Source of the DNA: Lineus longissimus
Taxonomy: Eukaryota
Length of the DNA: 64,000 nt
Reading direction: 5' to 3'
Assembly (NCBI RefSeq): GCF_910592395.1
Contig: NC_088312.1
Coordinates: forward strand, 2,933,858-2,997,857
Part shown: one piece after another, positions 26,263-50,471 of the stretch
Layout: every line of letters begins with the position of its first letter
Position numbering within the stretch: position 1 is the stretch's first letter
Position numbers and translations under genes: made by a program
The notes under the pieces: model-generated
Database searches by the model: none
Told to the model about the DNA's origin: nothing
What the model saw: the letters and a program-made list of their open reading frames with translations, nothing else

Positions 26263-26446
26263 AACGAGTCTGAAGTATTCTTCGCCCAGCAAGACATTGC
26301 ATTCTCGCATGATGGCGGTGAGCGAAGTTGCCTTGGGTGATGTCTACAAGACGCATAGATATGACACAGAGCTGAAGGCGCCCCCTAATGGCTACCACAG
26401 TGTTCTTGGTGTGAGCAAAATACACGGTAGTGAGTCGCAATTTGTG
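26263..26446 (+). CDS. PARP4: PARP4 exon (catalytic)
   Basis: TSLKYSSPSKTLHSRMMAVSEVALGDVYKTHRYDTELKAPPNGYHSVLGVSKIHGSESQFV (ORF 26222..26509). Confidence 0.85.
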
Positions 26447-26566
26447 GTGAGTGGCGATGTTTATCATGGTGCATTGCGATCGAACACACAAGAGTCAAAT
26501 GTCATTTGAACTTTTCTGAAATCTCTGGCTCTGATTAGGCATTTGAAAGTTTATCCCTATTTCCAG

Positions 26567-26723
26567 GATGACGAGTACGTGATATATGATACAAAGCAGC
26601 AGAGAATCAAATACCTTGTTGAGTTCTGGCTCCCAGAAGATGGATATAGGCCAGAATATCAGTTCGATCAAGCAGAGGTTGAGGATAGTGATGTTGCTCA
26701 TGATGATCGGGTGACAGGCATCG
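26567..26723 (+). CDS. PARP4: PARP4 exon (catalytic Glu, DDEYVIYD)
   Basis: DDEYVIYDTKQQRIKYLVEFWLPEDGYRPEYQFDQAEVEDSDVAHDDRVTGI (ORF 26543..26734). Confidence 0.85.
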
Positions 26724-26955
26724 GTAAGAATTAGTTTACATCAAGTTTTAGTCCATGAGAAATCTAATAACATTGATGGAACCTAAGTATACATGTACAC
26801 CAAGTTTATTGAAATTGAGGTTGACTATCAGAAATTCTAGTTAAGTCACTTCTGTCTGCCTGACTTAAAGACGTCTGTAAAAAAAAAGCCGGAGAATTTT
26901 CTTTTTCTTTGTTATTGTGGGTGTCATATTTCTTATTCATGTGATCTTTTCGCAG

Positions 26956-27086
26956 ATCTGAAAGACATTCAAAATGTCAAGAATCCACTTGATGATGTTG
27001 CACTGGGCCTGGTTTCGAAGTCAGATGCCAAAGTTCCTCTGGAATCCGTCCATGTTCGTGCTCAGCTGATTGATCTAGCAGGAAAG
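26956..27086 (+). CDS. PARP4: PARP4 exon (start of VIT)
   Basis: DLKDIQNVKNPLDDVALGLVSKSDAKVPLESVHVRAQLIDLAGK. Confidence 0.8.
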
Positions 27087-27375
27087 GTGAGTCCATTACT
27101 GAACTGTTGTTCTGTGATTGGCTTAACTGTTTACTTTATATCTTCTTGCATGTTCTCCCCCAACCCTCGCAATTTTCATTATCGCTTATGACTCGTATGA
27201 CTCACTATCAAGATGTCTAGTTAAAAGCCGGTGTGAGTTATTTCTGGTCACCAACTCTGAAAAAGGTTGGTAGGCTGGTAGTTCGATGTTGAAATAATCC
27301 TATTCTGGCATAGATATCCTTGAGGTTCGACTAAGTCGTCTCACTTTTCGTATTAACAGAATCATTTTTCCCAAG

Positions 27376-27600
27376 GTTGTTGTATTACAAGAGTACCGCA
27401 ATGACAGCTCGATACCAATAGAGGCCAAGTATGTTTTCCCGCTGGATGAGATGGCAGCTGTGTGTGGATTCGAAGCATTCATAAATGGCAAGCATATTGT
27501 CGGCGAGGTGAAAGAAAAAGAGACGGCTCATCGTGAATATAAACAGGCGATTGCTGAAGGTCATGGGGCGTACCTCATGGATCAGGACGAGGAGACTCCC
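27376..27600 (+). CDS. PARP4: PARP4 exon (VIT domain)
   Basis: VVVLQEYRNDSSIPIEAKYVFPLDEMAAVCGFEAFINGKHIVGEVKEKETAHREYKQAIAEGHGAYLMDQDEETP; near-identical to the vertebrate block ...AAVCGFEAFINGKHIVGEIKEKEEA...GHGAYLM. Confidence 0.9.
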
Positions 27601-27961
27601 GTAAGTAATCTTTAATAGGTGATTTTTTTTCAACAACAATTCTGCCCTAACTCTGTTCAATGGCAGTTTTTATATAGCGTTTTCAACTGATCAGTCACTG
27701 TCACTATTATAGGTCCCCACAGAGGCACTCCGAGGCTTCAACTTATCAAGTGTCTGTCGTCATTTTAGCACTCACTTTGCTCATCCTGAAAATAGGACCA
27801 AGATGTGACCAGGGCAGGGTTTTTGAACCCACAACCCTTGGATTAAGAGTCAGATACCTTAACCAGTATCCCACTTTAATGTTGGGTGTGCTTGTGCGGG
27901 ATTGGATTTGTGTTACTTTGTGGTACATGTCTTATCTTTTGGTAATGCTTAACCCTAACAG

Positions 27962-28126
27962 GAGATCTTCACCGTTAGCGTTGGAAACCTGCCTCCCTAT
28001 GCTTCCGTACTCATCAAGATCACTTATGTCGCAGAGTTACAAGTGGAGGAGGAGAAGATAAACTTTGTTATCCCAGGCAGTGTGGCCCCCTGGAAGAAAG
28101 ATAAAGCACTTGGAGAGATTACACAG
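27962..28126 (+). CDS. PARP4: PARP4 exon (VIT domain)
   Basis: EIFTVSVGNLPPYASVLIKITYVAELQVEEEKINFVIPGSVAPWKKDKALGEITQ; vertebrate DVFTVSVGNLPPKAKVLIKITY. Confidence 0.9.
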
Positions 28127-28343
28127 GTTTGTACTTAAATCAGCACTCACTTGGACTTGATCCTCTACAATGTTTGTTCGGTCTTATCATGCCCAAAACC
28201 CTCTCGCCTATGCCAGTGTTGGCTCCAATCCCTGGTCATGACTTCCAGTGTAGAGATATCTTTGATTTCTAGTTGAAATCATTGGTCTTAATATGTACAT
28301 TTAGAAAGCGAATGTTGACGATGTTTACATATCTTTTTTTCAG

Positions 28344-28463
28344 ACCACACATGATACCGTCAAAGTAGATGAGGATACTGACGATCTGTCCATCCAAGTT
28401 TCTGTGGAGATGCCGTTCCCCATCCGGAGTATTGAGAGCCCGACACACAGAGTTGCTATAAAG
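28344..28463 (+). CDS. PARP4: PARP4 exon
   Basis: TTHDTVKVDEDTDDLSIQVSVEMPFPIRSIESPTHRVAIK. Confidence 0.8.
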
Positions 28464-28677
28464 GTAAGCCAGCAGCAGGACTGGCAGTTCAGTCTTAATT
28501 CCTTTGGTCAAACCATTCCCATATTCCCAATGTACATATTAGTTACCTGGAGATCAACCTATTAGACACTCTAACCTCTACAGTCTCTGGATATAGGCTC
28601 TCTAACCTCTACAGTCTCTGGATATAGGCTCTCTAACCTCTGCAGTCTCTGGATATAGGCTCTATTCATGTTTTCAG

Positions 28678-28827
28678 AGAACTGAAACCAAGGCAGTAGT
28701 TATGATGAAGGAGAACCAGTCGATTGGCTCAAGTTTCCTCCTACAGATTAGTCTCGCCGAGATCCATGTCCCCAGGATGTGGGTCGAGCGAGACTCTGAA
28801 AAAAATCTGGATGACGAACAATTCGAG
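28678..28827 (+). CDS. PARP4: PARP4 exon
   Basis: RTETKAVVMMKENQSIGSSFLLQISLAEIHVPRMWVERDSEKNLDDEQFE; vertebrate ...LPRMWVEKHPEKE. Confidence 0.85.
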
Positions 28828-29126
28828 GTATGCTTGTTGATTGATTCACCACCTTCTGCCATTTTGTTTTGAGGTTGTTGATATATATAACTGGGCAAAT
28901 ACATCAGGCTTGTGCGTATGAAAGACAGTAAAATATATTTCGTTGCATCATCTGACCACTGTTGGTGGGAGGCAGTTATTGTATGGACCATTTCCGTGTC
29001 ATGAACTTGGTACATATCCGTGAAAGATACTTAAGATTGTGCAACAACCTGTTCTCAACAAGAAGCAAAATTGAAATTGGAAAGGTGACGACAGAACGTG
29101 GGCTAAAGAATGCTTCTCCATTTCAG

Positions 29127-29313
29127 GCCTCTATGCTGACCTTCTACCCAGAGTTTGAAACTGAGGAAAACCCGAGCTTTGAAGTAGTGTTTCTGCTCGA
29201 TTGCTCCAACTCGATGGACCACTCTTCATCGATGGAAGCAAGGAAGATACTACTGCTCGCGCTGCATCATCTCGATTCTCAGTGCAGCTTCAATGTTGTC
29301 AAGTTCGGCACAG
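29127..29313 (+). CDS. PARP4: PARP4 exon (VWA domain)
   Basis: ASMLTFYPEFETEENPSFEVVFLLDCSNSMDHSSSMEARKILLLALHHLDSQCSFNVVKFGT (ORF 28962..29354). Confidence 0.85.
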
Positions 29314-29438
29314 GTATGCATCCATCGGCAAAAACTGGTAGATTAGAGTCATAACATTGGTGATATCATGTTAAAAGCCCATTTACCATTTGATACTTAA
29401 TCAGAAAGTGTTGACTCAATATTTGTTGATATTTTGCA

Positions 29439-29512
29439 GGTTTTGACGAGTTATTCCCATCGAGTCAGTTAAAGACGAAACAGAATGTCAAAATGGCAGA
29501 AAATTTCTTGCA
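29439..29512 (+). CDS. PARP4: PARP4 exon (VWA)
   Basis: GFDELFPSSQLKTKQNVKMAENFLQ. Confidence 0.75.
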
Positions 29513-29881
29513 GGTAATAAATGAGCAATTGAAAATAACTGCTTGTAACTGAGAAGGTGAACCTTGAAAGCTGGTTATGTCCTTTGAATGTTTCAATAAC
29601 CAACACAAAAATGGGTGATGTAAGAGCATTATCGACACTTATGTGTTAGTGTTCTCGTGTCTGTCAATCTGAGCTGTGTGCTACTGTAAACCGAGTAATG
29701 TTTGTGTACCATTTATTTAAATGTTAACAGGTAATTGTGAAAGTAAATGGACACAAAAAGAGAATTGAATTAAAATTTCTGTTAGTTGAAGGTCCATTAG
29801 ACTGCTATTTCATAAAATTGCAAAGAAACGTGGCTGCCAATAGTTCTGGGTTTCCGGTGTACCTTGCTTGTTTCATTTCAG

Positions 29882-30166
29882 AATGTAGCCAACCTCGGCA
29901 ACACAGATGCCTACAAGCCGTTGTTTTCATACTTCCTGCTGCCACCTGTGGACACAGTGAGAAACATCTTCCTGATCTCCGACGGCCATGTGACCAACTC
30001 TGATGCAACCCTGGCTTCGTTGAGGAATAACTTCAAACACACTCGACTCTTCACATTAGGTGTCAGTTCGTCCGCTAACCGCCACATGTTGAGGAGTCTT
30101 GCACAAGCCGGGGCTGGATTCTTTGAGTATTTTGACAGTAAAACTAAATCCAAGTGGGAGGGCAAG
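29882..30166 (+). CDS. PARP4: PARP4 exon (VWA)
   Basis: NVANLGNTDAYKPLFSYFLLPPVDTVRNIFLISDGHVTNSDATLASLRNNFKHTRLFTLGVSSSANRHMLRSLAQAGAGFFEYFDSKTKSKWEGK (ORF 29864..30205). Confidence 0.9.
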
Positions 30167-30392
30167 GTAAGACTTTGCAAACAGACGAAAATGAATCAAA
30201 AATAAGCACCATATGTTCATACCCAGTTTTGATGTCTTTATTAAGCCTGTCTTCAATATGCCAAATTGTGAGGTGCATCATCTCGATGTGTCTCAGCTAT
30301 ACTTTTGGTTCAGGCCATGATTGAACTGCCCTCAAACCTGAGCGCCAATCAACAGTGTTTCAATCAATCATTCATTCCTCATCTGATTGCAG

Positions 30393-30563
30393 ATCATTGC
30401 TCAACTCCACAAGGCCTCACAACCTGTGCTAACCTCAGTAAGCATAGAATGGAAACAACATGACAACTATCGGAGATATTGTATGCAAGCCCCGGCAAAA
30501 GTCACATCTCTCTTCAGTGGGTCGAGGTTGGTTGTCTACGGCTATGTACAGGATTGTACACAG
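30393..30563 (+). CDS. PARP4: PARP4 exon
   Basis: IIAQLHKASQPVLTSVSIEWKQHDNYRRYCMQAPAKVTSLFSGSRLVVYGYVQDCTQ; vertebrate ...ALQAPAQVPSLFLNDRLLVYGFIPHCTQ. Confidence 0.9.
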
Positions 30564-30666
30564 GTAGGATTGAGAATTATGCTGTTCTAGTCCATTGTTG
30601 AGCCTGCTTTTCATTCATTGCATTCAATATGATACGTTCAGAAAGTGGAAAGGGTCTTGATACTTG

Positions 30667-31078
30667 TGTCAGATATATACTGAATGATGTGTCAGATATA
30701 TACTGAACGATGTGTCAGATATATACTGAACGATGTGTCAGATATATACTGAATGATGTGTCAGATATATACTGAATGATGTGTCAGATATATACTGAAT
30801 GATGTGTCAGATATATACTGAATGATGTGTCAGATATATACTGAATGATGTGTCAGATATATACTGAATGATGTGTCAGATATATACTGAATGATGTGTC
30901 AGATATATACTGAATGATGTGTCAGATATATACTGAATGATGTGTCAGATATATACTGAATGATGTGTCAGATATATACTGAATGATGTGTCAGATATAT
31001 ACTGAATGATGTGTCAGATATATACTGAATGATGTGTCAGATATATACTGAATGATGTGTCAGATTTATACTGAATGA
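30667..31078. repeat. Minisatellite: 23-bp unit GTGTCAGATATATACTGAATGAT x ~18 in a PARP4 intron
   Basis: Near-perfect tandem copies are directly visible, with occasional T>C variants in the unit. Confidence 0.95.
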
Positions 31079-31128
31079 ATTGGAATGATAGTTGTATCTA
31101 AATAATGGTCAGATTTCATTTATTTCAG

Positions 31129-31209
31129 GCAACTTTGACTGCGATTGTTGATGGAAGAGAGGTGTCTACAATCGTCTCAACATCTGAATTGAGTATATCG
31201 GCTGGCAAG
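31129..31209 (+). CDS. PARP4: PARP4 exon
   Basis: ATLTAIVDGREVSTIVSTSELSISAGK. Confidence 0.8.
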
Positions 31210-31431
31210 GTAAGTTGGGGCCAAATCTTTAAAGGGAACTGTAGGCAGGAACCACGGATTTTTCAATGTAACTGATTTCAACAGCTGGAAATTCTAGTTT
31301 GACTTACTGATGAACATATTTTTTTCACTAGCAGGACTAGACTTGCTTTAAGTGCTCTGCACATGAATGTAGTATGTAATGGTGTTGGTTGGCCGAGTAG
31401 CGAGTTATGTAGTATTCTCTCATGGTTTCAG

Positions 31432-31512
31432 ATTGTTCATCAGTTAACCGCACGAGCAGCCATCCGGGATTGGGAAACTGGTCTTCTTGATGACAACAGA
31501 ACTGAGCACGAG
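31432..31512 (+). CDS. PARP4: PARP4 exon
   Basis: IVHQLTARAAIRDWETGLLDDNRTEHE; vertebrate MIHKLAARALIRDYEDGILHENETSHE. Confidence 0.85.
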
Positions 31513-31783
31513 GTAAGAATATTCAGCTAATGTTATGCATTCTGTCCTTTAGTATTCTTCTAAAAAAAATGGGCAGATTCCACAAAGGGGTCTGTACTAA
31601 CAACAAGTTTTCAGATGAAACTCGTCGCAAAAAACATCTCTGCCATATCAAGTTAAATGCAAATGGAAAATTTTTCCAAAAAATCTTAGTTTTTTTATTG
31701 TAGTCTCAGTGACTGTACAGTCTGGCTTAGAACCACTTGTTTTTTACAACATAATAACAAATTCATATTTTTATATTTTTTAG

Positions 31784-31885
31784 GTCGTGAAGCGAAACAG
31801 GAAAAGTTACATTATTGATCTCAGTAAGGAATATTCTATTGTGACGCAGTTCACCAGTTTTGTGGCGATTGAAAAGCGTGAAAAG
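31784..31885 (+). CDS. PARP4: PARP4 exon
   Basis: VVKRNRKSYIIDLSKEYSIVTQFTSFVAIEKREK; vertebrate ...LIIKLSKENSLITQFTSFVAVEKRDE. Confidence 0.9.
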
Positions 31886-31991
31886 GTAGGCATGTACGAT
31901 TTTAAAGGGCGTGGCAAGGGGCTGTTGCCAGGGTACGTGATTTGTGTAGTACTGTGTCTCATATCTAAAGCCAATGATATCTTTTCTTCAG

Positions 31992-32213
31992 GACGAAGAG
32001 TTTCATGATCCACACATATCTGATCTGGTCGAGAATGAAGATGTTGATATTCTGGATTACATGGAGTATGAAGGAGAATGTCCGTCCAGGGAGGACAGTG
32101 AGTCGGAGTCGGGGTCCAGCGTGGACAGTGAGTCCGAGTTGAGGTCGGGTTCCACATATGATGACTATGACGTCTGTGAGGCACTGTCACTACCCCAGTT
32201 GGCGGAATCATCC
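31992..32213 (+). CDS. PARP4: PARP4 exon (acidic linker)
   Basis: DEEFHDPHISDLVENEDVDILDYMEYEGECPSREDSESESGSSVDSESELRSGSTYDDYDVCEALSLPQLAESS (ORF 31974..32279), donor |gtaagc. Confidence 0.8.
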
Positions 32214-32224
32214 GTAAGCATGCC

Positions 32225-33152
32225 ATTATGTACCACTTATATGCTGATGACAGTCAATTGTATGTGGCCTTCACTATAATTGAGATTAGTACCACCTGCT
32301 CCAAGATCTCTAATGCTGTCCACGATTTAAATCTCTGCTTGGTTGACAACTTTCTTAGCTGTAATGGCGACAAGACCGAGATTCTGCTAATCTGTTCCCG
32401 CAGGTTCAGCAGCACTATTAATCTCCCCGCCATCCGTATCATTGATGCAAATGTATATTCTTCTGTTTCTGCAAGAGATTTGGGTGTGATCTTGGACCGT
32501 GATTTCAATTTCAAAGAACACATAAACACCTGTGTACGGGCCACCAATTTTCACATTCGTAACATCGGGAAAATCAGAAAATATCTAACTCCAAATACCA
32601 CCAGGTTATATGTCCAGGCTCTTGTAATATCTCGCCTGGATTTCTGTAATTCCCTTTTCCTTGGTTTTCCCAATTCAACAATTATACCCCTACAGAAGGT
32701 ACAACACTCTGCCACTCGCCTAATTACCAAGACCAAGAAACGATCTTCCATTTCCCCAGTACTCAGGTCTCTACATTGGCTTCCTGTGCAACAGCGCATC
32801 AAGTACAAGGTTCTCCTTCTTACTTACAAGTGTCTTCACCAACTTGCTCCCCAATACCTTTCAGAACTTCTCACCGTTCATACCGTTTCTCGAACACTGC
32901 GCTCTTCATCGGCCGTTCATCTGTCTATCCCAAAGGCCAATGTCATGTCAGTCGGTGGTAGAGCATTTTCAATTGGAGCCCCTCAGCTGTGGAACAAACT
33001 TCCTTAACCTGTTAGGAACTGCAGCTCTCTGTTATCTTTCAAGGGACAACTGAAACATTTGCTTTTTAAAGAGGCCTATCAAGTGCTTTGAGCGGCCAGT
33101 TAATGGTTGGATACTGCGCTATATAAGACTCGTATTATTATTATTATTATTG
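32225..33152 (+). mobile_element. 5'-truncated L2/CR1-clade LINE fragment (reverse-transcriptase C-terminus, 3'UTR and microsatellite tail) in a PARP4 intron
   Basis: ORF 32228..33007 begins at the RT YADD motif (LYADDSQLY) and carries the clade-typical C-terminus ...RSLHWLPVQQRIKYKVLLLTYKCLHQLAPQYLSELL...RTLRSS...GGRAFSIGAPQLWNKLP. A frameshifted ...SFKGQLKHLLFKEAY tail follows, then a (TTA)n tract at ~33133-33151. Confidence 0.8.
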
Positions 33153-33879
33153 GACAAACATGAACCTTTGTACACGAACGTGGTTGGTGACTGATGATTA
33201 TACAAATAAACTAATACACCTTTCTTGGAGCGCCGATAAATTTTTTTCAAAAACATCCTTTTCAGATTTCCATTCCATAAATTACCACAAATGGGTGATT
33301 TTCCAATGATACAAGTAAAGTCTGATTTTCAGATGATCAAACCATTTAGTTGAACATTTTCATGCCCAAAATCCATTGGCCAAATATCATTAGATTTATG
33401 ATCCTAAGAGTGTTTACACTTGTAAGCATTTTGACACCATTTTTAGCTCTGTGAAAAATTTTTGGATTAAGGACATACCGGTAAGGTAGTTACATCCACT
33501 CTCCACTTTTTTGATCAAACAATCAGAATACAGTTGGAAGTAATACTTGTGGGAAGAAAAATTGGAGTAGTAATTTCATGCTGCAGAAGATATTTCACCC
33601 TTTTGTCATTAGAGTAGTTGGTGACCTTCCTCTGGGTGTGACCTCATCTGAAGAAATGAGAAAATATTTTAAAGGGCGTTATCTCGACAAAAGATTTTCT
33701 CATGAGAAACCTAGATCGATCAACACTTTAAGCATTTTATCAGTTGTGGAGCATTATATGTGATATTACCAGGCAAGCATATTTTGAAGATTTCACCTCA
33801 TGAGTCAGGTTGCTACCACAACTCTACAAACCACTTTGTGTGATCTCCAATGAAAACAGTACCTTATAAGGAGACGAAA

Positions 33880-34031
33880 CTATAGATTACATTTGTTAGG
33901 CATTTTCCAGTTTCCCATACTCACTTCTTCCACGAATGGCTTGCATTTGCAAATTGCACAACCATTTTCATCCCTCTCGTAGTCATTTCCAGGGCAAGCC
34001 ATTCGGCATTTTGGAGTTGCTCCACAGTACC
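33880..34031 (-). CDS. Nested antisense gene, exon 2: antistasin-like cysteine-rich domain through the stop codon
   Basis: Minus-strand acceptor CGACAG|, then GYCGATPKCRMACPGNDYERDENGCAICKCKPFVEEVSMGNWKMPNKCNL*. The Cys pattern C-x3-C-P-x-G-x7-NGC-x2-C-x-C matches the antistasin-domain consensus (leech antistasin CRKTCPNGLKRDKLGCEYCEC). Alternatively a GTGAGT donor after ...FVEE would splice on to a further unseen exon. Confidence 0.5.
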
Positions 34032-34119
34032 CTGTCGAAAGAGATATTCAAATATACTCTGCACAAAACTGGACTTGTTCATTATATCTTTTTGAAATTT
34101 TCTTGAATCGATACCTTAC

Positions 34120-34183
34120 CTTCTGCCTGTACTTTCAGAAGTAGTATTCCCAACAGAAATGATAGACTATACAGATGCTTCAT
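34120..34183 (-). CDS. Nested antisense gene, exon 1: signal peptide of a secreted antistasin-like peptide
   Basis: Minus strand: ATG MKHLYSLSFLLGILLLKVQAE (hydrophobic signal-peptide-like), followed by donor GTAAGG. Confidence 0.5.
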
Positions 34184-34716
34184 GTTTTTGTCTCTGTGGT
34201 CTTAAACTGGAATTGTGTGTGCCGTCAAGTGCTATGATTTCGTCCTTGTCTCCTATGCTTGTATTGAAAACAATTTTTATCCTCAAACACCTGTTTTGTT
34301 TATGCATGGAAAACTTTAGGTGTTCCACTTCATCGTGACTTTCCTATCAAGATAACAAAATTTGGCGAAAAATAAATTATACATCTAGATATCCATTATC
34401 TCAGATTGAACTTGAAATTCATATAGATAAGATTTTACATGGTCGTTAAAGTGCTGAACTCCCACAATTTGTTCATTGAATACATGGAACCTACACAGCT
34501 GTTAAATTTCCCCACATAAAAACCAAGTCAGAACTTATCAAAGCAGTCTTGCAGAAAAGTTACGCTTCCTAGTCTTGGTCTTGCTTCAGTATGATGCTAA
34601 CGCCCCTTATGACTGATTAAGAACCAGTAGGCTATTAGAATATTACTCACACCAGTCACTGATTGCACCAACCTTAATTACTGACAATTACATTTTGATT
34701 CATTCATATATTTCAG

Positions 34717-34810
34717 AGTACCATCTGGGCTGATGACATTCAGCCAATCACGTTTCAGGCAGGAAGGTCCAGCTCAAGGATCGAGTCATTCGATGAGTTT
34801 CAGGATTTAG
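34717..34810 (+). CDS. PARP4: PARP4 exon
   Basis: STIWADDIQPITFQAGRSSSRIESFDEFQDL, phase-consistent. Confidence 0.65.
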
Positions 34811-35070
34811 GTAAGGTTTACAACTCAATTTAAAGGGGACTTCAGGCAGAGCTTTAGGCTCTGATTAATGGTCACCTATTTGCACAGTTAGGTGATTGTG
34901 AAATAGACGAACCTGTTCACATTGATGCTGTAATGGAATTCAGAAATGGCAATTCCACTCTTGAATAGAGTAGAAAAGAGAGGACTTTTTGCCTGCTTCT
35001 GAATTTTTGTAAGTTTACCACTTTTTGTCTTTCAATTTGTCAAAAGAATTGTATTTTTGTCATTCTTTAG

Positions 35071-35175
35071 ATGAGGGAAGTCTTGATTTCGATGACTATG
35101 AACTCTCCTCAGATGCAGTGGCCGACGCTCCAGAATATTTGGATCTTGCAACAGACACTTTAGCAAGAGTTGCTG
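35071..35175 (+). CDS. PARP4: PARP4 exon
   Basis: DEGSLDFDDYELSSDAVADAPEYLDLATDTLARVA; its phase-1 end joins the giant exon in frame (g + ag = E). Confidence 0.65.
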
Positions 35176-36409
35176 GTAATTTATTTCACTTTTTTCTGTT
35201 CTTCGTGATGACTCTTTTTAATACCTTGGTACTGCCATGATCTGTCAGGACCCAGATTTAGAGCTAAAAAGTTTTAAGTGCAGAGAAACAATACCAGGTA
35301 CATTCTTGTTCTGTTTGTTGAGTCTTTACTCTTTGGCAGACCGTTCGAGATCCAATTAGCTCCACTGAATCAAATTCATTTTAAATTCTATATTGCCCTA
35401 CCCAGTTCAAGGCGAAGGACGCCATCACCATTGATGGAAAACCGCATGCAAGAAATTTGCTATGAAGACTCGGAAACTTATTCTCTTATGTTCTCAGGAG
35501 GTAATGCTACAGTCTTGTCATTCACCTCCTTCGGGAGGAAGTTAGAATTAAAACTCTTTCTCGTTCCCACTCGTCCAAATTTTGGCAGCCGCCCTGATGA
35601 TATTTTTTATATCACATTTTGCCACTACTTCATTGTGTTTTGGATCAGACCACAAATGCGCAACTCGTGCTGACAGTGCTTCCGTTATATTAGTATGTAA
35701 AGCATAATATCTGATTGTATAGATCATGACCTTGACTGCTGAATTCCGTTGTATGCCACTACATGTCAGGAGTAACAATTTCATTGGTAATAGTACTCAG
35801 TCATAGATTCTTTGATGGCGTTTAATCAATATACATGTAGATTCTACTGTGAGCCATCAATGATTAGATGATGGAGAATGTTCATCATAGATTCATTGAT
35901 AGAAACACAGGTTGTATCTATGGTGTTATCATTGACTCTATCATGGTATCTATAATAGCCTTTTTTATGGGTCATCAACAAATTGTTTTTGAATTGGTGA
36001 ACAATTCTTTTTTTTCCAGAATTCTGAAGACTAACTCTAATGGTTTTATACTTTGATACTTGCATCTATGATGGTGGGGCCCATCATAGAATATACAATG
36101 GGTCATCATAGACTCTAATGCTTGCCCGACAGAGAATCTGTGACGGGACATGAGTGTAAAACATGGTTTGTGATATTCATCATAGATTGTACCATGGGCC
36201 CATCAGTGATTCGTCATGGATTGTACCATGGGCCCATCAGTGATTCGTCATAGATTGTACCATGGGCCCATCAGTGATTCGTCATAGATTGTACCATGGG
36301 CCCATCAGTGATTCTATGATGGAAACGTTTGCCTCTGTCAAGTGGTGAGATTTGTCTTCATTTCATACCGAATGACTTTGACACAAGTTACCATCTTTAT
36401 TTACTTCAG

Positions 36410-39400
36410 AGATAGAACAGTCTTTGAAAAGACCCTCACCACCTGAAGCATCAATAAGACGTAGACTACCCCTACCCCCACCACCAGCACACCCAGCCCC
36501 ACCAATAGCACGGGCAAGTTACAGATCTGCAGTTTTTACAAACGAAGCTAAGGCAGGTTTTGCAGGAGCCTACAGAGGTGGACCAATAATGGCTGATGCA
36601 TTACCACCACCATCACCACCTATGAGAGGAGGTGGATCAACTCCACCACCACCACCCGGGGCAGGTTTTGCAGGAGCCTCCAGAGGTGGACAATTAATGG
36701 CTGATTCACCACCACCACCACCACCCAGGGCAGGTTTTGCAGGAGCCTCCAGAGGTGGACAATTAATGGCTGATTCACCACCACCACCACCACCCAGGGC
36801 AGGTTTTGCAAGAGCCTCCAGAGGTGGACAATTCATGTTTAATTCACCACCACCACCACCACCACCCGGGGCAGGTTTTGGAGAAGCCTCCAGAGGTGGA
36901 CAATTAATGGCTGATTCACCACCACCACCACCACCACCACCACCACCCGGGGCAGGTTTTGCAGGAGCCTCCAGAGGTGGACAATTTATAATGGCTGATT
37001 CAACACCACCTTCACTTATGCCCAAGTCATCTGTATTAATGGCTATGCGAGAACTCCCTTCACCATTACCTAAAGTGGCTGCTACTAGAGATACGACACA
37101 CTCGCTTACAACACCAGTCGATGCAGGTTTGAAAGTAATGGCAGGAAGGCATATAAGAATGGGGATGAAAAGTCTGCCAGCAAAAAGCCTCGATGCATCA
37201 CTTGATGACATTGTGAAACCTACAACCGATAAACCAGATGTAAGGGAACATGCTTTTTCACGAGCGAGGCCCCGGAGGTTGTCTGAGTTGAATAAAAGCC
37301 AACGGCTGGGGATCAGCGATGCACCAGAACCAGTTTCATATGGCGTATACAGTTCAATGGCAGATGAGAGGGAGATGGGTGCAGAGACTGTTGAAGTTGC
37401 TGCTCCTACACCAAAACCTAGACCGAGGGTAAGTGAAGAGGCAGTTTTGATTGATGAGACATGTGGGAGTAATTTGTTTGATTCTAGTTCTCTTCTCGTG
37501 GATGAAGTTGATGGTGCTGAGCGGCAAGGTTTGGTGTCTAGTAGTATGTCACGTTTGAACAAGAAAGTCTTGGGTTGGCCTAATCATGCCAGTTCTCATC
37601 TGGCTCATCCTTTATATAACCTTACCAATCATACTTTTGGTTCTAACAGTCGTGCATTTGCCCCAACCAGTCCTACATACGGCCCAACTAGTCCTTCATA
37701 TAGCCCGACTAGTCCTACATACAGCCCAACCAGTCCTTCATATAGCCCGACTAGTCCTACATACAGCCCAACCAGTCCTTCATTCGGCCCAACTAGTCCT
37801 TCATATAGCCCGACTAGTCCTACATACAGCCCAAGCAGTCCTTCATACGGCCCGACCAGTCATTCATATAGCCCGACTAGTCCTGTCTTTAAACCGACCA
37901 GTCCTTCATTAGTCAAACCTGATTGGTTACATTTTCAGCCAACTAGCCCTTCCTCTCCAATGCATGCAAGACCTGAGCATGGTGAGAAAACCCTCTTGCC
38001 CTGTTCTTTGAATTCCGATAACAAAGTTACTAAAATAACTGTTGAATCAGAAGCTTCACGTATTGACGAAAGACCAAAGTTTGGAGAAATAAAATCATCA
38101 TTGTTTGGCTCAGTATCTCGAACAGGTGGATTGGTAGGAACACGAACATCCCAGTCTGGAGCTCCATCTGAAACGGGTGGCTTTGGAGGAACACAAACAT
38201 CCTTGTTTGGAGCTCCATCTCAAACAGGTGGCTTTGCAGGAACACAAACATCCTTGTTTGGAGCTCCATCTCAAACAGGTGGTTTTGGAGGAACACAAAC
38301 ATCCTCATTTGGAGCTCCATCTGAAACGGGTGGCTTTGGAGGAACACAAACATCCTTGTTTGGAGCTCCATCTGAAACGGGTGGCTTTGGAGGAACACAA
38401 ACATCTTCATTTGGAGCTCCATCTGAAACGGGTGGCTTTGGAGGAACACAAACATCCTTGTTTGGAGCTCCATCTGAAACGGGTGGCTTTGGAGGAACAC
38501 AAACATCCTCATTTGGAGCTCCATCTGAAACAGTAGGCTTTGGAGGAACACAAACATCCTTGTTTGGAGCTCCATCTCAAACAGGTGGCTTTAGAGGAAC
38601 ACAAACATCTTCATTTGGAGCTCCATCTGAAACAGTAGGCTTTGGAGGAATACAAACATCTTTGTTTGGAGCTCCATCTGAAACGAGTGGCTTTGGAGGA
38701 ACACAAACATCCTCATTTGGAGCTCCATCTGAAACAGTAGGCTTTGGAGGAACACAAACATCCTTGTTTGGAGCTCCATCTCAAATGGGTGGCTTTGGAG
38801 GAACACAAACATCCTCGTTTGTAGCGCCAGCTAAGTCAGGTGGTTTTGGAGCATCTTCACAACCATCTGGGTTCGATGCTCCAGCGCAGTCAAGTTCTTT
38901 CGTTGGAGCGACGTTGGAGCAAACGTCTGGATTTCGAGTACAGGCTCTACCAATTGCTTTTGGAGCAACATCCCAAAAACCATCTGGGTTTGGATTTGGA
39001 GTACCAGCTCAGTCAAGTGCTTTTGGGGCAGCAACACAACAACAATCGGGATTTTCCTTTGGGGCACCAGCTCAGCCAAGTGCTTTTGGGGTAACACCCC
39101 AAAAACCATCTGGATTTGGATTTGGAGTTCAAGCTCAGTCAAGTGGTTTTGGGGCAACAACACAACCACAATCTGGATTTAGATTTGGAGTACCAGGTCA
39201 GTCAAGTGCTTTTGGGGCAGCAACACAACAACAATCGGGATTTTCCTTTGGGGCACCAGCTCAGCCAAGTGCTTTTGGGGTAACACCCCAAAAACCATCT
39301 GGATTTGGATTTGGAGTACCAGCTCAGTCGAGTGTCCTTTTAAGAGCTGCTGCAAAACCTGTCATTCAAGATAAGCAATCAACAAAGCGAGTATTATTAT

Positions 39401-39945
39401 CCATCCCTTCTGAAGAACCATTGCCTAAACATGATCCAGTGCCACTTCTGAAGAAGACAATAAATGAGAAAAAAAGCGCTTGCTGGGGTGGTCCACCGAG
39501 TGATTTTGCTGAGAGTTTTGGCAGTGATCAGTTGAAGGAACTCGTGGCTGAGATGCAGTTACAAGGTGATCTTAAAGAAGATGATGTGTATGAGATTTCT
39601 GAGATGCTGAAGGAGGTGGAAAAGGCTGAGGAACATGACAAATCGGACAAAACGGCTTTTGGTGGATCTCAGCGGACATGTCCTCCAAATTATTGGATAG
39701 ATTCCTCCGATGATGAGTGTCTGGTTGGCTCTGTCCTGAGCACTGAAGATGGAGAAGAGGTTGGCGAAATACAAGCAAGGAGGAGCTCAGATGTTGGACC
39801 AGCAGCCAAAACGGTGATGCTTGATGCTCCAAAGACTGGTCCAACAACGTATTTGATTAGATCTTCAAATAAAGAAATTCCAGTTGCTCCTGAAGTGCAT
39901 GATCATATGCTGGGTGAGATAGAGGATGTTACTCCAAAGGAGAAG
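36410..39945 (+). CDS. PARP4: PARP4 giant exon: Pro-rich 23-aa repeats, CTD-like YSPTSPS heptads, and FG repeats
   Basis: ORF 36424..40029 is continuous for 1201 aa. Upstream of its annotated start the frame stays open back to the acceptor cttcag| at 36409 and joins the previous exon in phase. Its most likely 3' end is the donor aag|gtagga at 39945, followed by exons restoring the conserved C-terminus. Alternatively it reads through to TGA at 40029 (or a donor at 40013). Confidence 0.7.
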
Positions 39946-40143
39946 GTAGGAACCAATGGATTAGCATTAGTATTTAGGAGGATTCACGTGTTGGCTTCTA
40001 TTCCTCATCTAAGGTACTTCCATGGTTGAAACTTCTACAGGAGACACCCCTATTGGCTACTTTGTGTACCTTGATCTGACCTTCCCAGCTCCTGCCTTTT
40101 GTCCCCCTTTAACAGTAGTATAATGCAAGTCTTCTCTTCTCAG

Positions 40144-40209
40144 CGTGGAGCGGTGAGGGAAAAACGGGATTCGGTTTTTGAGACATACGACATTTTGGAG
40201 CAAGGACCA
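40144..40209 (+). CDS. PARP4: Putative PARP4 micro-exon
   Basis: RGAVREKRDSVFETYDILEQGP, acceptor tcttctcag|, weak donor cca|gtagaa; it places the conserved P|W junction seen in vertebrate PARP4 (...DAVPW|TELL). Low confidence. Confidence 0.35.
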
Positions 40210-40429
40210 GTAGAACAACAACATAAAAAATGTATCAAAGACATATTTGACACCAATCCTTATGCATCACAAGGCAAGTATATCAACTTTGAAACACAAA
40301 GGACAGATCAAAACAAGGCCTAAGGTATATTCCAAAGAAATCTTGTTATCCTGTGACCAAGGCCTTTTAGAATGATAGACCCAGGATAATGATTTATGGT
40401 ACTTTTCCTGTTTCGATATGTACTTTCAG

Positions 40430-40706
40430 TGGTTGGTATACAGTACTAATAATATTCCATTGAATGATTTTATCACAGATTCTGAGGGTTACTTCAGTGA
40501 CACAGCTATTCGAAACGTCCTCCTTGATAAGAAGATGAAAAAGCTAACCGGTGCTGAAATTGAAGAATTGGTCAGAAATGGCAATAGTTCATACCCTGAG
40601 GAAATGTTTTGGGATTTCTCTAATCCTGCCATTTACGAATGTCTGCTTGGTGTGTCTGTTGAGACTTGTCGTAATCTACTTCAAGATGCTGGTTTGCAGT
40701 CTTTGG
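40430..40706 (+). CDS. PARP4: PARP4 exon (vault/MVP-binding C-terminal domain)
   Basis: WLVYSTNNIPLNDFITDSEGYFSDTAIRNVLLDKKMKKLTGAEIEELVRNGNSSYPEEMFWDFSNPAIYECLLGVSVETCRNLLQDAGLQSL (ORF 40418..40747); vertebrate ...QTEDGFWKLTPELGLILNLN...KQKGIQSLG. Confidence 0.8.
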
Positions 40707-41153
40707 GTAAGTCATGGAAGTTACCAAATAGCGGTAAAGCATGGTGAACTTAACTTACCCAAAAGTTCCTAAAAAACCCAGAGAGACGAATTCTGTGTTG
40801 TCTGTTGGACTCAAACGCGGGCCCCTGCATTCATGGGTCAGTGAGCAGTGTTAGCCACTGAGCTATGTGGCTGCTCTTCATCAGACTGACGAAGTTCCCA
40901 GAAGGGATTTTAGCTCTTTAGTAGACTTTTCAATCAAAATTGGTGTGCTACGTGCGGATTATGCCATGGTTGACATTGCCTGACTTCTTAACCACCATTG
41001 TTGTGCAGATGATAAAATGCACCAAGCAAGTCAGTAAGGTAAATTTGACATCCGGAATGGTGTCTTTATCTCTTTATGTCTTCTTCTACATGGCCACTAT
41101 TGAGAATCTTTCTAAATACATATAAGTTTCATATTTTTTTGGTAATTTTGCAG

Positions 41154-41425
41154 GTGCCAAGGCTGTGCTCGAAATTAGTCGCTTGGTGGCAACATTGATT
41201 GTAATATATCACGTTGTCCACAGTCTGACTGATTGGGTCACGAAGAAAAGATGCCTGTTGAAGGAGGGTTACATCGAATGTGGACAAGAAAGCACTTTAA
41301 GAGCCCTCAAAATGGCGAAGACGTTTTGTCAAGCGAGGGAAAGAGGTTTCCCACTCACATACTCGACCTTGGAACTCGGCAGTAGCTGGGACAATGTGAT
41401 TCAGAAGTGGCTAGAAATCATTTGA
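41154..41425 (+). CDS. PARP4: PARP4 terminal coding exon (MVP-binding domain), stop TGA at 41423-41425
   Basis: GAKAVLEISRLVATLIVIYHVVHSLTDWVTKKRCLLKEGYIECGQESTLRALKMAKTFCQARERGFPLTYSTLELGSSWDNVIQKWLEII*; vertebrate ...LDLIATMLVLQFIRTRLEKEG...RLELGNDWDSATKQLLGL. AATAAA follows at 41451. Confidence 0.85.
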
Positions 41426-46786: not shown

Positions 46787-46958
46787 GATGAAAAATCAAT
46801 ATTTTTGTCCTCAATAAATATACACTGCTGCCACCTATTGCTATTTCAAGGAGTACGTGGCAAGTGCCCCACACTCCATACAGAAATGAAATACACAGTA
46901 GAATACACAACATGCTCTATCCAAAGGGTTCACTGCTCTGAGTGTATTGTGTGGCAAG

Positions 46959-47585
46959 ATGGCAGCGGGGAGAATGTTGCCTGTGCACCAGAGACAGTTT
47001 CTAAATGGCATTCCACTCCCTTCCTCAAGGAAAACATTACGTCTACGGGAAAAATATATTATAATTCTAGTATTTGTAACTTTTGGCACATTCTGTTTTG
47101 GGGCATTTTTCTTCCTACCTGATTTACGGGACCGAATGAGTGTGGACGAAATGAGAAGACAGTTTCGTGATGCAGGCAATGAAATGTTCATTCCCAAGGC
47201 TAGGGACAGTGACATTGTGTTTGAAAATGGTAAACTGATTGGTAAGGTGATAAAGCATGATGTTGATGCAATAGACCATCACGATATTGAAGACAAATTT
47301 AAGATTTTAAAAAAAGTAGAAGAAGCAAAGGAACAGGAAAGAATGCTTGAGGCGATTCGAAATCGTTTGAACATGTCGAAAGGCCACCACGAGACGATAC
47401 GTAAAGAAATCCAATTGGAAAAAAATATCGTTTTAGAGAAGAAAAAGCAAGAAATTGAGGAGCGGAAAAAAAAACAAATCGAACAACACCTGAAAGAGGT
47501 GACGGAGCATGATGGTGGACCGGGGGTTCAGGGCGGCCAGCCCGTCGATGTTGAAACACAAAAACGAAGAGAGAAAGTGAAGGAG
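46959..47585 (+). CDS. MAN1A: Alpha-1,2-mannosidase (GH47, MAN1A-like) exon 1: cytoplasmic tail, TM anchor and coiled stem
   Basis: MAAGRMLPVHQRQFLNGIPLPSSRKTLRLREKYIIILVFVTFGTFCFGAFFFLPD...KRREKVKE (ORF 46947..47612); vertebrate MAN1A1 ...LRLTEKFVLLLVFSAFITLCFGAIFFLPD. Confidence 0.85.
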
Positions 47586-49362
47586 GTGAGGATGATGTTG
47601 CCAATTGGCTAGCCAGTCCACTTATCTTATGACTGATATATCCGTACCTTTAAGATATGTCCTATACTTTCTATTTTCCACTTTTCCGGCCCGGGTCTAT
47701 GATTATGAATGAGGCATGTTAGTAGACCTAAGACATGCAAGTTCAGGAGATGCCATTCATTTATTTCCATTTCAGGAATCGTCTGTTGGAGACTGTTTGA
47801 AGCCAATGAAGGTTGCAACAGACATGAGGAGGCGACTACATCATGACACCTTGTTTTTGTAAACATTTGATACCACTACCAGTGGCACACCCTCCTCCCT
47901 TTCTCAGTGACAGCTTCTTTACAAGTCCATTTTCCTGAGGGATGCATCTTGTCACACAGGGCTCAGAGATCGCAAGGTCCTTGCAAGACGCTGAGTCCTG
48001 CCTGTGAGGTGGGGATTTTAGACATGCTGGGGTGAGGTGGCGGGATATGTCATACAAGATTTTATAGCACAGTCACTGTCCTTTGTTCATAGTATTATGT
48101 TTTATCATTTGGTTAGGTACAGTTGCTTCGTTGAACATGTTCAAAATGATCGCTTTGTGAACTAGAAAAGTGGAATGATGACTCTCAAATATTGATTGAT
48201 TATCTTATCTTCGGTCATAATCTATAATCCGAGCCTCTCCATTTCATCACAACTCAAAACATGACAGGTTAAAAATGAACAATGGACGAGTTGTGCACTT
48301 CGATTCGATCTAGCTCTACCATCCAGTTCATGAATATTTGAATGTGCATCATTTTATGAAATCATACAGTAAATGTGAAACACTGCATGAGACAGTGACA
48401 ACTGTGCTACACACAGTATTTTAGTTCGCGACGTTTGTGTTGCCCGTGAATTTGCTGTCACGGTATACTCAAGTTGCCTGTGGGAAGGGCGATAAGAAAG
48501 TGGCCTTTTTGCAAAACGGCTGTTCCTCAATAAATGAACCAGCACCCAGCAAATATTTACAAAAGTCACAAACGCTTTATCATAAATTCTTTGTTAAAAA
48601 TTTCTTTTGGTCATGTTTGATTGCCAACTTTGACGACACTTCAAATGATTATGAATAATACATCCAATCCGCTGGCTTGGGTAAATAGTTCTGTAGAATA
48701 TAGAGTATTGATCAGACATACAAATTCTAACTTGTGCTCGCAGCTAAAACATGTTATGTCATGGTTCTTGCACAAGTTCACCACAATTTCGTCAAGAATT
48801 GATATCAATTTATAACATTTTGTGCATTGTCCTCCTTTTGGGGGGCATTGGGGGACACATTTCTATCATACCAAACTCGGTTTTTCAATACATCAAGTAT
48901 AAAACCCAACTAAAACCAAAAGAGGGTCCTCAGTTAGTGCTCAGGCTTGATATAATCAGTAGTCTAACTGATAGTATGTATTGAACAGCCACACAGCAAA
49001 TATTCTTCTCGATATTCTAAGCTCAGCCTCCCCTCCCCCATCAATCATGAACTCAGTAAGCAGTCATGCTGCGGTACCAGGATTGTTTCTCATATTTCCA
49101 ATATCACCTTGCTTGCTATGAATAAGCGTATTGTTTGGTACTGAGATAGATTACTATAGCTCCTAAAGTGTAGCTCGGGGTGTTTCGAGGGTCTTTGTTT
49201 TGTTTGACAATGTTTGAGATCCTTGCAACCTGCCCACGTGCCAACAACTTAACAACTTCAGCATGAGACATGGAAGGCTGTTGCACTTAGGCAAATTTCC
49301 TTCCTGATCTTCCTTCAATTTCATAAAAAACTCATGTATTCTGTCACCTTCTATCTTTTCAG

Positions 49363-49578
49363 ATGATGAAACATGCCTGGGACAATTACGTCAAGTACGC
49401 ATGGGGCGCCAACGAGTTAAAACCTATCTCCAGACGTGGTCACACTGCCAGTATATTTGGTAACACTGCTTTTGGGGCTTCCATTGTTGACGGTTTGGAT
49501 ACCTTATATCTCATGGGACTCATGGAAGATTACAAAAAGGGAAGAGATTGGATTGCTGCCTCCCTCAATTTTCAAGGG
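49363..49578 (+). CDS. MAN1A: MAN1A-like exon (start of the GH47 catalytic domain)
   Basis: MMKHAWDNYVKYAWGANELKPISRRGHTASIFGNTAFGASIVDGLDTLYLMGLMEDYKKGRDWIAASLNFQG (ORF 49363..49599); vertebrate [24 protein letters not shown]. Confidence 0.9.
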
Positions 49579-49879
49579 GTAAGTATGAGGGAATGTTGAC
49601 ATAGTATGTGAAGTCATGGTGTGTCGGGAGCCATGCGATACATGAGTATGGTGAAACAAGTATGAATTGTCATGGTTGTATTGTGTAGCCTAGAATTTTG
49701 ATGTATAGTCTGAGTCAAGATTTTCATGAATAGAACAACTTCAAGTTTAAGTGTGGAAACCTGTAATGATTGGTGGATTCAATGAACCAATTTCACCTGC
49801 TTTTCTACTATCAGTGTACCATGTTACTCAAATGCAGCATCGTAATCGTTTTCACTTTCTCTCTCTTTGTCTCTTTTAG

Positions 49880-49960
49880 AAAAGTGACATTTCTGTCTTT
49901 GAGGTGAATATCCGGTTCATTGGTGGGATGTTGAGCTGCTACGCTATGACAGGAGATAAG
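49880..49960 (+). CDS. MAN1A: MAN1A-like exon
   Basis: [27 protein letters not shown]; vertebrate [26 protein letters not shown]. Confidence 0.85.
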
Positions 49961-50218
49961 GTATGACCGCCATAATTGATGATAATACCATGAATAAGGA
50001 TCACCCAGCAGGATTACCCATGATATAGGTTTCTGGTGATTCTACTGCTGTCATGTTGTCCTGCAAGTGCAATCTGTATCTGAAGTGTTCTATGAAAACT
50101 GTGACACCGGCAGTGATGCCTTTACAAATGATGCCGTCACTAAACGGTGCCTTTAAAAAGAGTCATCTTCACTACTGAGGTATTTTAGAAGTAATTTTCA
50201 GTTACTCTGCGTTTTCAG

Positions 50219-50313
50219 ATGTACAAAGATAAAGCCATCATGATTGCGGACAAGTTATTGCCTGCGTTTAATACTCCAACAGGTATTCCGTATGCTATGG
50301 TGAATTTAAACAG
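50219..50313 (+). CDS. MAN1A: MAN1A-like exon
   Basis: MYKDKAIMIADKLLPAFNTPTGIPYAMVNLN; vertebrate ...LLPAFHTPSGIPWALLNM. Confidence 0.85.
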
Positions 50314-50471
50314 GTAAGGTTTCCTTTCTGTTATTTTCTCTTGACTTCTTGGAGATGTATGAATAATGCTTTGAGTATGAATCTGTCAACCATGAATCTG
50401 TCAGCCCTGAGGGAGGAGTTCTGTCCATCCGGAACCTGCATCAAGGATCAGCTTTACGGTGACCAGGTTGA

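Follow-up and report, generated by a model that had tools for sequence, protein, structure and literature searches.

Why does the gene for a vault PARP carry, between its enzymatic part and its vault-binding end, a 3.5-kb exon full of repeats that read like the tail of RNA polymerase II and like the FG (phenylalanine-glycine) repeats of nucleoporins? The question is raised by a 64-kb window of the genome of the nemertean Lineus longissimus (contig NC_088312.1; the window is the whole stretch of DNA that was analysed, and all positions below refer to it), for which an initial annotation, made from the sequence alone, had proposed an open reading frame (ORF) at 36410 to 40029 as an exon of a PARP4 orthologue joined in frame to its neighbors on both sides. 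We find that positions 36410 to 39945 are almost certainly exon 29 of L. longissimus PARP4, the vault PARP, and that this exon encodes an intrinsically disordered linker of ~1180 aa between a BRCT-ART-VIT-VWA head, where ART is the ADP-ribosyltransferase domain, and a C-terminal MVP-interaction domain.

A query made of the concatenated flanking exon-like ORFs, with the repeats excluded, recovered the RefSeq protein "mono-ADP-ribosyltransferase PARP4-like isoform X2," the protein cluster of which also includes isoforms X1 (XP_064627263, 2732 aa) and X3 (XP_064627265, 1893 aa). In a spliced mapping all three of these L. longissimus proteins align to the window at 100% identity with canonical splice sites, and the in-frame joins proposed on both sides of the exon map exactly. 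The proposed start at 36410 is kept, and the end moves from 40029 to a donor at 39945. Downstream, where exons had been drawn from 40430 to 41425, the last position stands; an exon at 40144 to 40273 had been missed, and the one after it starts at 40479 rather than at 40430. The gene structure rests on the RefSeq predicted isoforms, and alternative variants in that pipeline normally require transcript support. The relevant features are as follows (a slash within a DNA motif marks a splice junction).

22002 to 41425, + strand: coding sequence span of the PARP4-like gene, with 32 coding exons in X1, GT/GC-AG sites and an exact spliced mapping.
35071 to 35175, + strand: exon 28, acidic, which gives the first base of the codon finished at 36410.
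36410 to 39945, + strand: exon 29, the largest exon, encoding the low-complexity linker (3536 nt, ~1178 codons) and ending at the donor AAG/GTAGGA.
39946 to 40029, + strand: read-through of the ORF past the donor to a TGA, intronic in all RefSeq isoforms and outside the protein (codon log-likelihood ratio [LLR] of -0.15, GC of 0.41).
40144 to 40273, + strand: exon 30 (RGAVREK...PYASQ), from spliced mapping.
40479 to 40706, + strand: exon 31, part of the C-terminal MVP-interaction domain.
41154 to 41425, + strand: exon 32, part of the C-terminal MVP-interaction domain, ending at the stop codon.

Two details of the neighboring introns were also recorded: the intron after exon 30 is a non-canonical GC-AG intron with the donor GCAAGT at 40274, and a 34-bp tandem repeat (4.1 copies, 97% identity) lies at 36175 to 36314 in intron 28, ~95 bp upstream of the exon 29 acceptor.

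The identity of the gene is supported at both ends of the protein. Pfam matches in the head comprise BRCT, PARP_reg, PARP, VIT (1.8e-35), and VWA_3 (4e-16), in agreement with the BRCT, PARP, VIT, and VWA exons proposed upstream, and isoform X1 as a whole is ordered as BRCT, PARP regulatory and catalytic domains, VIT, VWA, disordered linker, and MVP-interaction domain. The ART domain matches human PARP4 structures with an E value of 4e-39 and PARP1 with one of 4e-14. Its alignment with human PARP4 suggests that three motifs are retained, namely LFHAS (LLHGS in human), GSGMYFS (GSGIYFS), and DDEYVIY (DDEFVVY), with the H, Y, and E positions aligned; from established knowledge of PARPs we take these positions to be the H-Y-E catalytic triad. 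At the C terminus the last 122 residues align to residues 1582 to 1703 of human PARP4 (phmmer E = 7e-4; PDB 9bw6, 9bw7, and 11jf), which form its MVP-interaction domain, and the downstream exons are therefore probably MVP-binding, as had been proposed. The LELG.SW motif of this domain is kept in 20 of 20 aligned orthologues. The MVP gene itself does not lie within the 64-kb window.

Several properties of the DNA indicate that exon 29 codes. The junction peptide TLARVA-EIEQSL is found in X1, X2, and X3, and the exon lies between the VIT/VWA block and the MVP-interaction domain, which is the position of exon 30 in human PARP4. The frame from 36382 to 40026 runs for 1215 codons without a stop; stop trinucleotides have a frequency of 0.05 in the flanking introns, and at that rate so long a frame would stay open by chance with a probability of ~1e-27, and the ~567 non-repeat codons alone with one of ~3e-13. 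GC content is 0.45 to 0.50 across the exon compared to 0.37 in introns (exons in the window average ~0.47), and of the possible frames only that of the ORF has an exon-like codon log-likelihood. We considered whether 36410 to 39945 might instead be a separate gene or a satellite inside an intron, and rejected both on the basis of the spliced mapping, the codon usage, and the open-frame probability. Long ORFs in another frame or on the opposite strand also occur inside the repeats (36570 to 37562 and 38030 to 38575 on the - strand; 37586 to 37912 and 38177 to 38536 on the + strand); these are by-products of the repeats and not genes.

Most of the exon is occupied by tandem arrays, which we detected with Tandem Repeats Finder (TRF) and whose units we read from the in-frame translation. 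TRF placed the four arrays of the initial annotation at essentially the coordinates given there. The parts of the exon are as follows.

36643 to 37010, + strand: proline-run array, with a 23-aa unit starting PPPPPP(R/G), present in all three isoforms (TRF: 69 bp x 5.0, 87% matches, score 510).
37429 to 37938, + strand: in-frame internal intron ("exitron") of 510 nt or 170 codons, bounded by GAGG/GTAAGT and TTTTCAG/CC.
37663 to 37914, + strand: array of heptads resembling the C-terminal domain (CTD) of RNA polymerase II, with 12 units PTSP(S/T)Y(S/G), which is YSPTSP(S/T) in the CTD register.
38122 to 38835, + strand: FG array 1, ~14 copies of a 17-aa unit ending (L/S)FGAPSE, with 23 FG in 238 aa and 5% charged residues.
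38836 to 39334, + strand: FG array 2, degenerate SGFGFG, SAFGA, and SGFSFG repeats with 63-bp and 189-bp periods.
39335 to 39945, + strand: unique acidic tail of the exon, with ~32% charged residues and a net charge of -15, skipped by X3 (codon LLR of +0.31).

The proline-run array is rich in P (28%), G (19%), and A (14%), and an additional degenerate copy of its unit lies upstream at ~36546 to 36620. On the heptads TRF reports units of 21, 42, and 63 bp x 10.6 at 37662 to 37884/37909 with scores of up to 341; 10 of the 12 units are good, the last two are degenerate, and 5 are exact matches to YSPTSP[ST]. FG array 1 is called as 51 bp x 14.3 (38121 to 38851, 88% matches, score 1105) and FG array 2 as 63 bp x 6.5 plus 189 bp x 2.2 (38928 to 39334, score 681), and the two together (38122 to 39330) contain 39 FG dipeptides in 403 aa at a median spacing of 9 residues, with 4 to 5% charged residues. 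Array copies are near-identical in DNA, and they form super-units of 42 bp (two heptads, with T and S alternating) and of 102 bp (two FG units, with L and S alternating). The acidic tail has no relatives in Pfam or the PDB, and Pfam and PDB searches of the unique linker segments identified no hidden host-protein fragments in Lineus. A protein search with the concatenated unique segments returned no matches, the Lineus protein itself included, and is uninformative on relatives in other nemerteans.

The modules are distributed unequally among the isoforms, through alternative splicing that the initial annotation did not note. The whole heptad array sits inside the internal intron at 37429 to 37938, which X1 keeps, so that it has all modules, and which X2 removes by splicing 37428 to 37939, with the loss of the heptads. 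In X3 the same donor (37428/37429) is joined to 40144, so that the heptads, the two FG arrays, and the acidic tail are lost and only the proline-run array remains. The sole GTRAGT in the 3.5-kb exon is the one at 37429. For the unique part of the alternative segment (37429 to 37662) the LLR is +0.059 per codon (intron null, -0.60 ± 0.27, with a 99th percentile of 0.068), exon-like in the frame of the ORF and in no other, and 170 open codons would occur by chance with a probability of ~2e-4. With this exon-like codon usage and an open frame of such low probability, the retained form of the segment looks coding.

The heptads were described by the initial annotation as the consensus of the RNA polymerase II CTD, and this was borne out in both the protein database and the PDB, where they match only the CTDs of RPB1. 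The top 120 matches of a search with the whole exon were all RPB1; the results were filled with RPB1 CTDs and did not include the Lineus protein itself, and we used this search only to confirm that the heptads are CTD-like. In such word-indexed searches, with the exon or with its unique parts, the list of candidates appears to be taken up by low-complexity words. Similarity searches with exons of this kind are swamped by RPB1 and nucleoporin matches, and similarity-based annotation of them can mislead. Against the PDB the heptad block recovers RPB1 CTDs with E values as low as 4e-149, together with CTD peptides crystallized with CTD-binding proteins. The label CTD-like is thus strongly supported by sequence comparison: the block has the YSPTSP(S/T) consensus in 10 to 12 tandem copies, with matches only to RPB1 CTDs and CTD peptides. 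It differs from a genuine CTD in that it has no polymerase core, Pfam identifying no RPB1 domains in the protein, so that it is CTD-like and not a CTD. Moreover, Lineus RPB1 has ~49 heptads compared to 12 in PARP4, and the PARP4 heptads alternate between S and T at position 7, are spliced optionally, and belong to a protein that, in vertebrates, is known to be part of the vault in the cytoplasm. A recent capture of the heptads from POLR2A appears less likely, since heptads occur at the same place in the PARP4 of several phyla.

The resemblance of the FG arrays to nucleoporins is looser. Compared to 1.84 billion representative proteins, the FG region has 85 matches at E ≤ 1e-3, the best at 94 bits; among the top five are two Nup98 proteins (with the autopeptidase domain present) and one protein with Nucleoporin_FG, the remainder being assorted low-complexity proteins. 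There is no relative of this region in the PDB. Like FG nucleoporins of the Nup98/Nup62 type, the Lineus repeats have uncharged spacers rich in G, S, T, Q, A, and P and come in SLFG, GGFG, and FSFG flavors. In contrast to these nucleoporins, Lineus PARP4 has no domain that would anchor it in the nuclear pore complex, and its units appear nearer to the FG arrays of other PARP4 linkers (e.g., that of Crassostrea) than to any single nucleoporin. The term nucleoporin-like, which the initial annotation had used, would therefore hold by composition and, with Nup98 among the best-scoring relatives, weakly by sequence, although the Pfam profile for such repeats finds no match. The proline unit may resemble actin AGFAGDD, formin FH1, or the N-WASP tract PPPPPPSRGG, a likeness that serves as a lead only. 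In the Dreissena orthologue (P0140), the proline unit PPPPPPSRGQ at residues ~2058 to 2096 has an SRG(G)Q element in common with the Lineus unit, and it too may resemble the N-WASP tract.

Are such modules peculiar to Lineus? The initial annotation had taken them to be lineage specific, and in this respect the comparison with other animals gave a different picture. Invertebrate PARP4 orthologues are commonly 2100 to 2700 aa long. CTD heptads are present in the linkers of Branchiostoma, Dreissena (4 to 5 units), Elysia, Strongylocentrotus, Saccostrea, Sinanodonta, and Owenia; FG arrays with 25 to 42 FG occur in oysters, Elysia, Asterias, Owenia, and Branchiostoma; and proline-run repeats are found in Asterias, Owenia, Branchiostoma, Elysia, Dreissena, and Tubulanus, with proline-run plus G-F-G units like those of Lineus in the Asterias, Owenia, and Dreissena orthologues. 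FG array 2 aligns at 46 to 49% identity with SSGFGFGVAQQQSAPSAP repeats of the Crassostrea virginica linker. Some fish and bird linkers also have FG arrays, proline runs, single YSPTSP units (in some teleosts), or an MGFGLFD motif. Lineus stands at the top of the orthologue range, and inside it, in FG count (49) and in length (2732 aa). The repeat architecture is thus common to PARP4 of many phyla in part: the motif classes are shared, and only the array sizes, above all the 10 to 12 heptads of Lineus versus 2 to 5 elsewhere, are special. The sequence comparisons indicate that the Lineus arrays are an enlarged version of motif classes that recur, in fewer copies, in the PARP4 linkers of other phyla.

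In those other phyla the linkers also contain pieces of globular and other host proteins. Among 20 diverse invertebrate PARP4s, Pfam identified ubiquitin in 6, actin in 6, 14-3-3 in 4, HSP70 in 4, synaptobrevin in 2, and a clathrin propeller and Nucleoporin_FG in 1 each. The C. virginica linker, for example, matches HSP70 (2.4e-22, profile positions 380 to 514), synaptobrevin (2e-8), and actin (7e-8, profile positions 5 to 56), and those of Owenia and Branchiostoma contain the C-terminal half of 14-3-3 (~1e-30). Two further pieces came from local BLAST and motif scans: the ribosomal P-stalk tail (EEMGFGLFD), in linkers of an annelid, amphioxus, molluscs, and two fishes, and the tail of histone H3 (ARKSTGGKA), in those of Branchiostoma and Dreissena. 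The local BLAST relied on hand-entered reference sequences (actin, ubiquitin, VAMP2, 14-3-3 zeta, HSC70, and H3), and what it showed was verified independently with Pfam, including precomputed Pfam annotations. The embedded actin piece always covers approximately residues 2 to 62 and, whether in a sponge, a cnidarian, hemichordates, or molluscs, retains 65 to 79% identity to actin, even where the surrounding linker is unalignable. The HSP70 piece is the substrate-binding beta-domain, the ubiquitin piece ends in RLRGG, and the synaptobrevin piece is the SNARE motif. In Dreissena the linker runs through ubiquitin, actin, the H3 tail, five CTD heptads, proline runs, and HSP70 and then reaches the vault-binding domain. 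Module order and content differ between lineages among the orthologue linkers, from sponge to amphioxus, and oyster PARP4 isoforms differ by entire FG blocks. The 8.4-kb Logan contig SRR23076780 carries a mosaic PARP4 as one ORF of 2563 aa (7.7 kb), and we take this contig to be RNA derived because the ORF is unbroken; the mosaic linker therefore exists at the mRNA level in at least one animal. In many phyla, then, the PARP4 linker is a changing collection of recognizable copies of core host motifs and fragments and not anonymous filler.

Vertebrates have a counterpart at the same position. The initial annotation credited vertebrate PARP4 with only a short P/S-rich linker, which proved mistaken: Daugherty et al. 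(2014, PMC4038475) showed the largest exon of the vertebrate gene (human exon 30, ~360 aa) to be disordered, to differ widely in length, and to evolve under recurrent positive selection, and they put it forward as an interface between host and pathogen. Human exon 30 is present in all of the expressed sequence tag isoforms examined in that study (PMC4038475). A later paper placed the region between the ITIH-like region and the MVP-interacting domain and suggested viral cleavage or modification (Suskiewicz et al. 2023, PMC10450202), and cryo-electron microscopy from 2025 shows the PARP4 C terminus anchored inside the vault, with the disordered regions mobile in the lumen (PMC12280208). Lineus exon 29 resembles the vertebrate exon in gene family and position, in being the single largest and a disordered exon, and in that length and sequence vary greatly; it differs in being approximately three times as long (~1180 versus ~360 aa), in consisting mostly of four tandem arrays with CTD and FG motifs, and in being internally spliced. 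In the searchable full-text literature, which leaves out subscription-only papers, we found no account of PARP4 linkers that mentions CTD heptads, FG repeats, or fragments of host proteins. The gene model is already in RefSeq; the architecture of the linker and the pattern across phyla appear to be undescribed.

What, then, might such a linker do? The Lineus exon is best read as the form that the hypervariable PARP4 linker takes in a nemertean. With a probability of roughly 0.4 to 0.45, we suggest that this linker presents, in a multivalent display, look-alikes of the conserved motifs of host hubs, and that these act as baits or decoys. In Lineus the look-alikes would be those of the polymerase II CTD, of FG nucleoporins, and of proline-rich tracts of actin regulators, and other phyla would add the pieces of actin, ubiquitin, HSP70, 14-3-3, the VAMP SNARE motif, the P-stalk tail, and the H3 tail. 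The C-terminal domain, by homology with human PARP4, would hold the linker to the vault interior. Whatever normally acts on the real host proteins by binding, cleavage, or modification, and pathogen effectors in particular, would become trapped beside the ADP-ribosyltransferase head or, as an alternative outcome, would cut the head loose from the vault, and rapid repeat turnover and alternative splicing may tune the bait repertoire. We favor this reading because the vertebrate counterpart evolves like a pathogen interface, because the pieces found in other phyla are truncated and judged to be non-functional alone and yet are highly similar to their models, and because module content and order turn over rapidly and modules are switched by splicing.

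A number of points weigh against the bait or decoy display. Isoforms X1 to X3 are RefSeq predictions, known here from models alone. The Lineus linker contains only low-complexity modules and, by Pfam and PDB searches, none of the globular host fragments of other phyla, and low-complexity modules arise easily by slippage. The similarity of the FG region to Nup98 is weak (≤94 bits), and Lineus PARP4 has no match to Pfam Nucleoporin_FG (PF13634) at E ≤ 0.1 and no nucleoporin domain. Tubulanus, the other nemertean in the set, has proline runs, few FG, and no heptads. That the copied host proteins are ones attacked by toxins and viral proteases is general knowledge, and the link from module to pathogen target draws on it. 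We also looked for purifying selection among the repeat copies, comparing synonymous and non-synonymous differences from the consensus, and there was no synonymous excess (15:36 in the heptads and 13:62 in the FG units). Together with copies near-identical in DNA and the super-units, this indicates that the arrays expanded recently: they are young tandem expansions by slippage or unequal exchange, and their copy number may be neutral. It is a short step from here to neutral low-complexity growth, in which a disordered exon tolerates slippage and the large arrays are a flexible spacer between the head and the vault anchor, and the wide variation in array size and order among species, down to the missing heptads of Tubulanus, and the existence of X3, which lacks most of the region, would be expected on that account. 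It does not explain why YSPTSPS, FG, and proline runs recur in distant phyla, with single units even in teleosts, why the frame stays open over 3.5 kb including the 170-codon alternative segment (P of ~2e-4), or why codon usage is exon-like in the unique parts, and we regard it as improbable.

Another explanation, essentially that of the initial annotation, is a role directed at the animal's own machinery, in which the modules would serve as an adaptor or condensate that loads cargo, localizes vaults, or brings substrates to the ART domain. Such host-facing roles account for the Lineus data just as well: the FG arrays have the composition typical of cohesive FG domains and Nup98 is among the best relatives, the heptads have the exact CTD consensus, the splicing of modules suits regulated interaction repertoires, and the module classes are conserved across phyla. 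In addition, local concentration would be high for a linker tethered within a closed shell (PMC12280208). The partners that might be envisaged, a tentative list, are nuclear transport receptors or a cohesive FG phase in or at the vault for the FG arrays, CTD-binding enzymes for the heptads, and profilin, SH3, and WW proteins for the proline runs. A host-facing role nonetheless leaves unexplained the truncated actin (residues 2 to 62), the 14-3-3 C-terminal half, and the HSP70 beta-domain of other phyla (that these do not function on their own is a judgment), as well as the positive selection on the vertebrate counterpart (PMC4038475), and the rapid change of module order and content between lineages would be unusual for housekeeping interfaces; we hold a host-facing role to be possible but on the unlikely side. 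Very much less probable is an artefact of annotation, by which an intronic satellite or repeat or a separate gene would have been merged wrongly into PARP4. In its favor are the computational nature of the isoforms and the long open frames that the repeats make in other frames and on the opposite strand, and against it are the exact fit of frame and phase on both sides at canonical sites, the GC content and codon usage that are exon-like in the ORF frame only, the chance probability of ~3e-13 for the non-repeat codons, and the occurrence, in orthologues from many phyla and annotation pipelines (one of them a contiguous transcript assembly), of linkers that are just as long, sit in the same position, and carry these motif classes.

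Elsewhere in the window, an ORF of 259 aa at 32228 to 33004 (+ strand) lies in intron 26 directly after the exon 26 donor (32213) and shows a YADD motif together with a tail of the LHWLPV type, features typical of a non-LTR retrotransposon truncated at its 5' end, with no Pfam match at 1e-3. A GAT-rich run at 23420 to 23563 in intron 4 forms a poly-Asp open frame (DDDNDDDDDDDDDDNDD) that is outside every RefSeq isoform. The neighboring genes, all on the + strand, are a DENN-domain gene (uDENN/DENN/dDENN; 254 to 18100), a glycosyl-hydrolase-47 alpha-mannosidase (46902 to 53440), and an RRM protein resembling hnRNP R/Q (59320 to 64000). A JGI/IMG metagenome contig of 2383 bp (P0243) encodes a 78-aa fragment that is at least 90% identical to the PARP4 VIT exon and clusters with the Lineus protein; the contig presumably comes from a related nemertean whose DNA was in the environmental sample.

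The function of vaults and of the vault PARP has been open since the 1980s, and the sole evolutionary clue had been the positive selection in the disordered largest exon of vertebrate PARP4. With the contents of the linker recognizable, the vague notion of a host-pathogen interface becomes a concrete question, namely, which factors directed at CTD, FG, ubiquitin, actin, or SNARE motifs attach to the linker or cleave it, and what then becomes of the ADP-ribosyltransferase head. Should the modules prove to be host-facing, they would provide a molecular handle on the long-suspected links of vaults to nuclear pores and transport. The bait or decoy display can also be extended to the Metazoa as a whole, an extension that we consider doubtful: the PARP4 linker would be an array of integrated decoys and the vault a guard platform of innate immunity, with Lineus as a variant in which CTD, FG, and proline baits were amplified and switched by splicing. 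Such an array, on this speculative view, would string together the actin N terminus and D-loop, ubiquitin (RLRGG), the HSP70 substrate-binding domain, 14-3-3, the VAMP SNARE, the P-stalk tail, the H3 tail, CTD heptads, FG repeats, and proline tracts. The searchable literature yielded no account of such a decoy array. We know of no effector, cleavage event, or downstream signal for the PARP4 linker. The closest known systems may be the integrated decoys of plant NLRs (NLR-IDs) and the "tripwire" regions of NLRP1 and CARD8. PARP4 differs from these in being a vault PARP of an unrelated family and in having many modules per linker, compared to one integrated domain, and the likeness, which rests mostly on the actin, ubiquitin, HSP70, 14-3-3, VAMP, P-stalk, and H3 pieces of the orthologues, is one of analogy and not of membership. 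What the systems would appear to have in common is a sensor or effector protein with a variable region that copies host proteins or motifs targeted by pathogens and a repertoire of such copies that changes fast between lineages.

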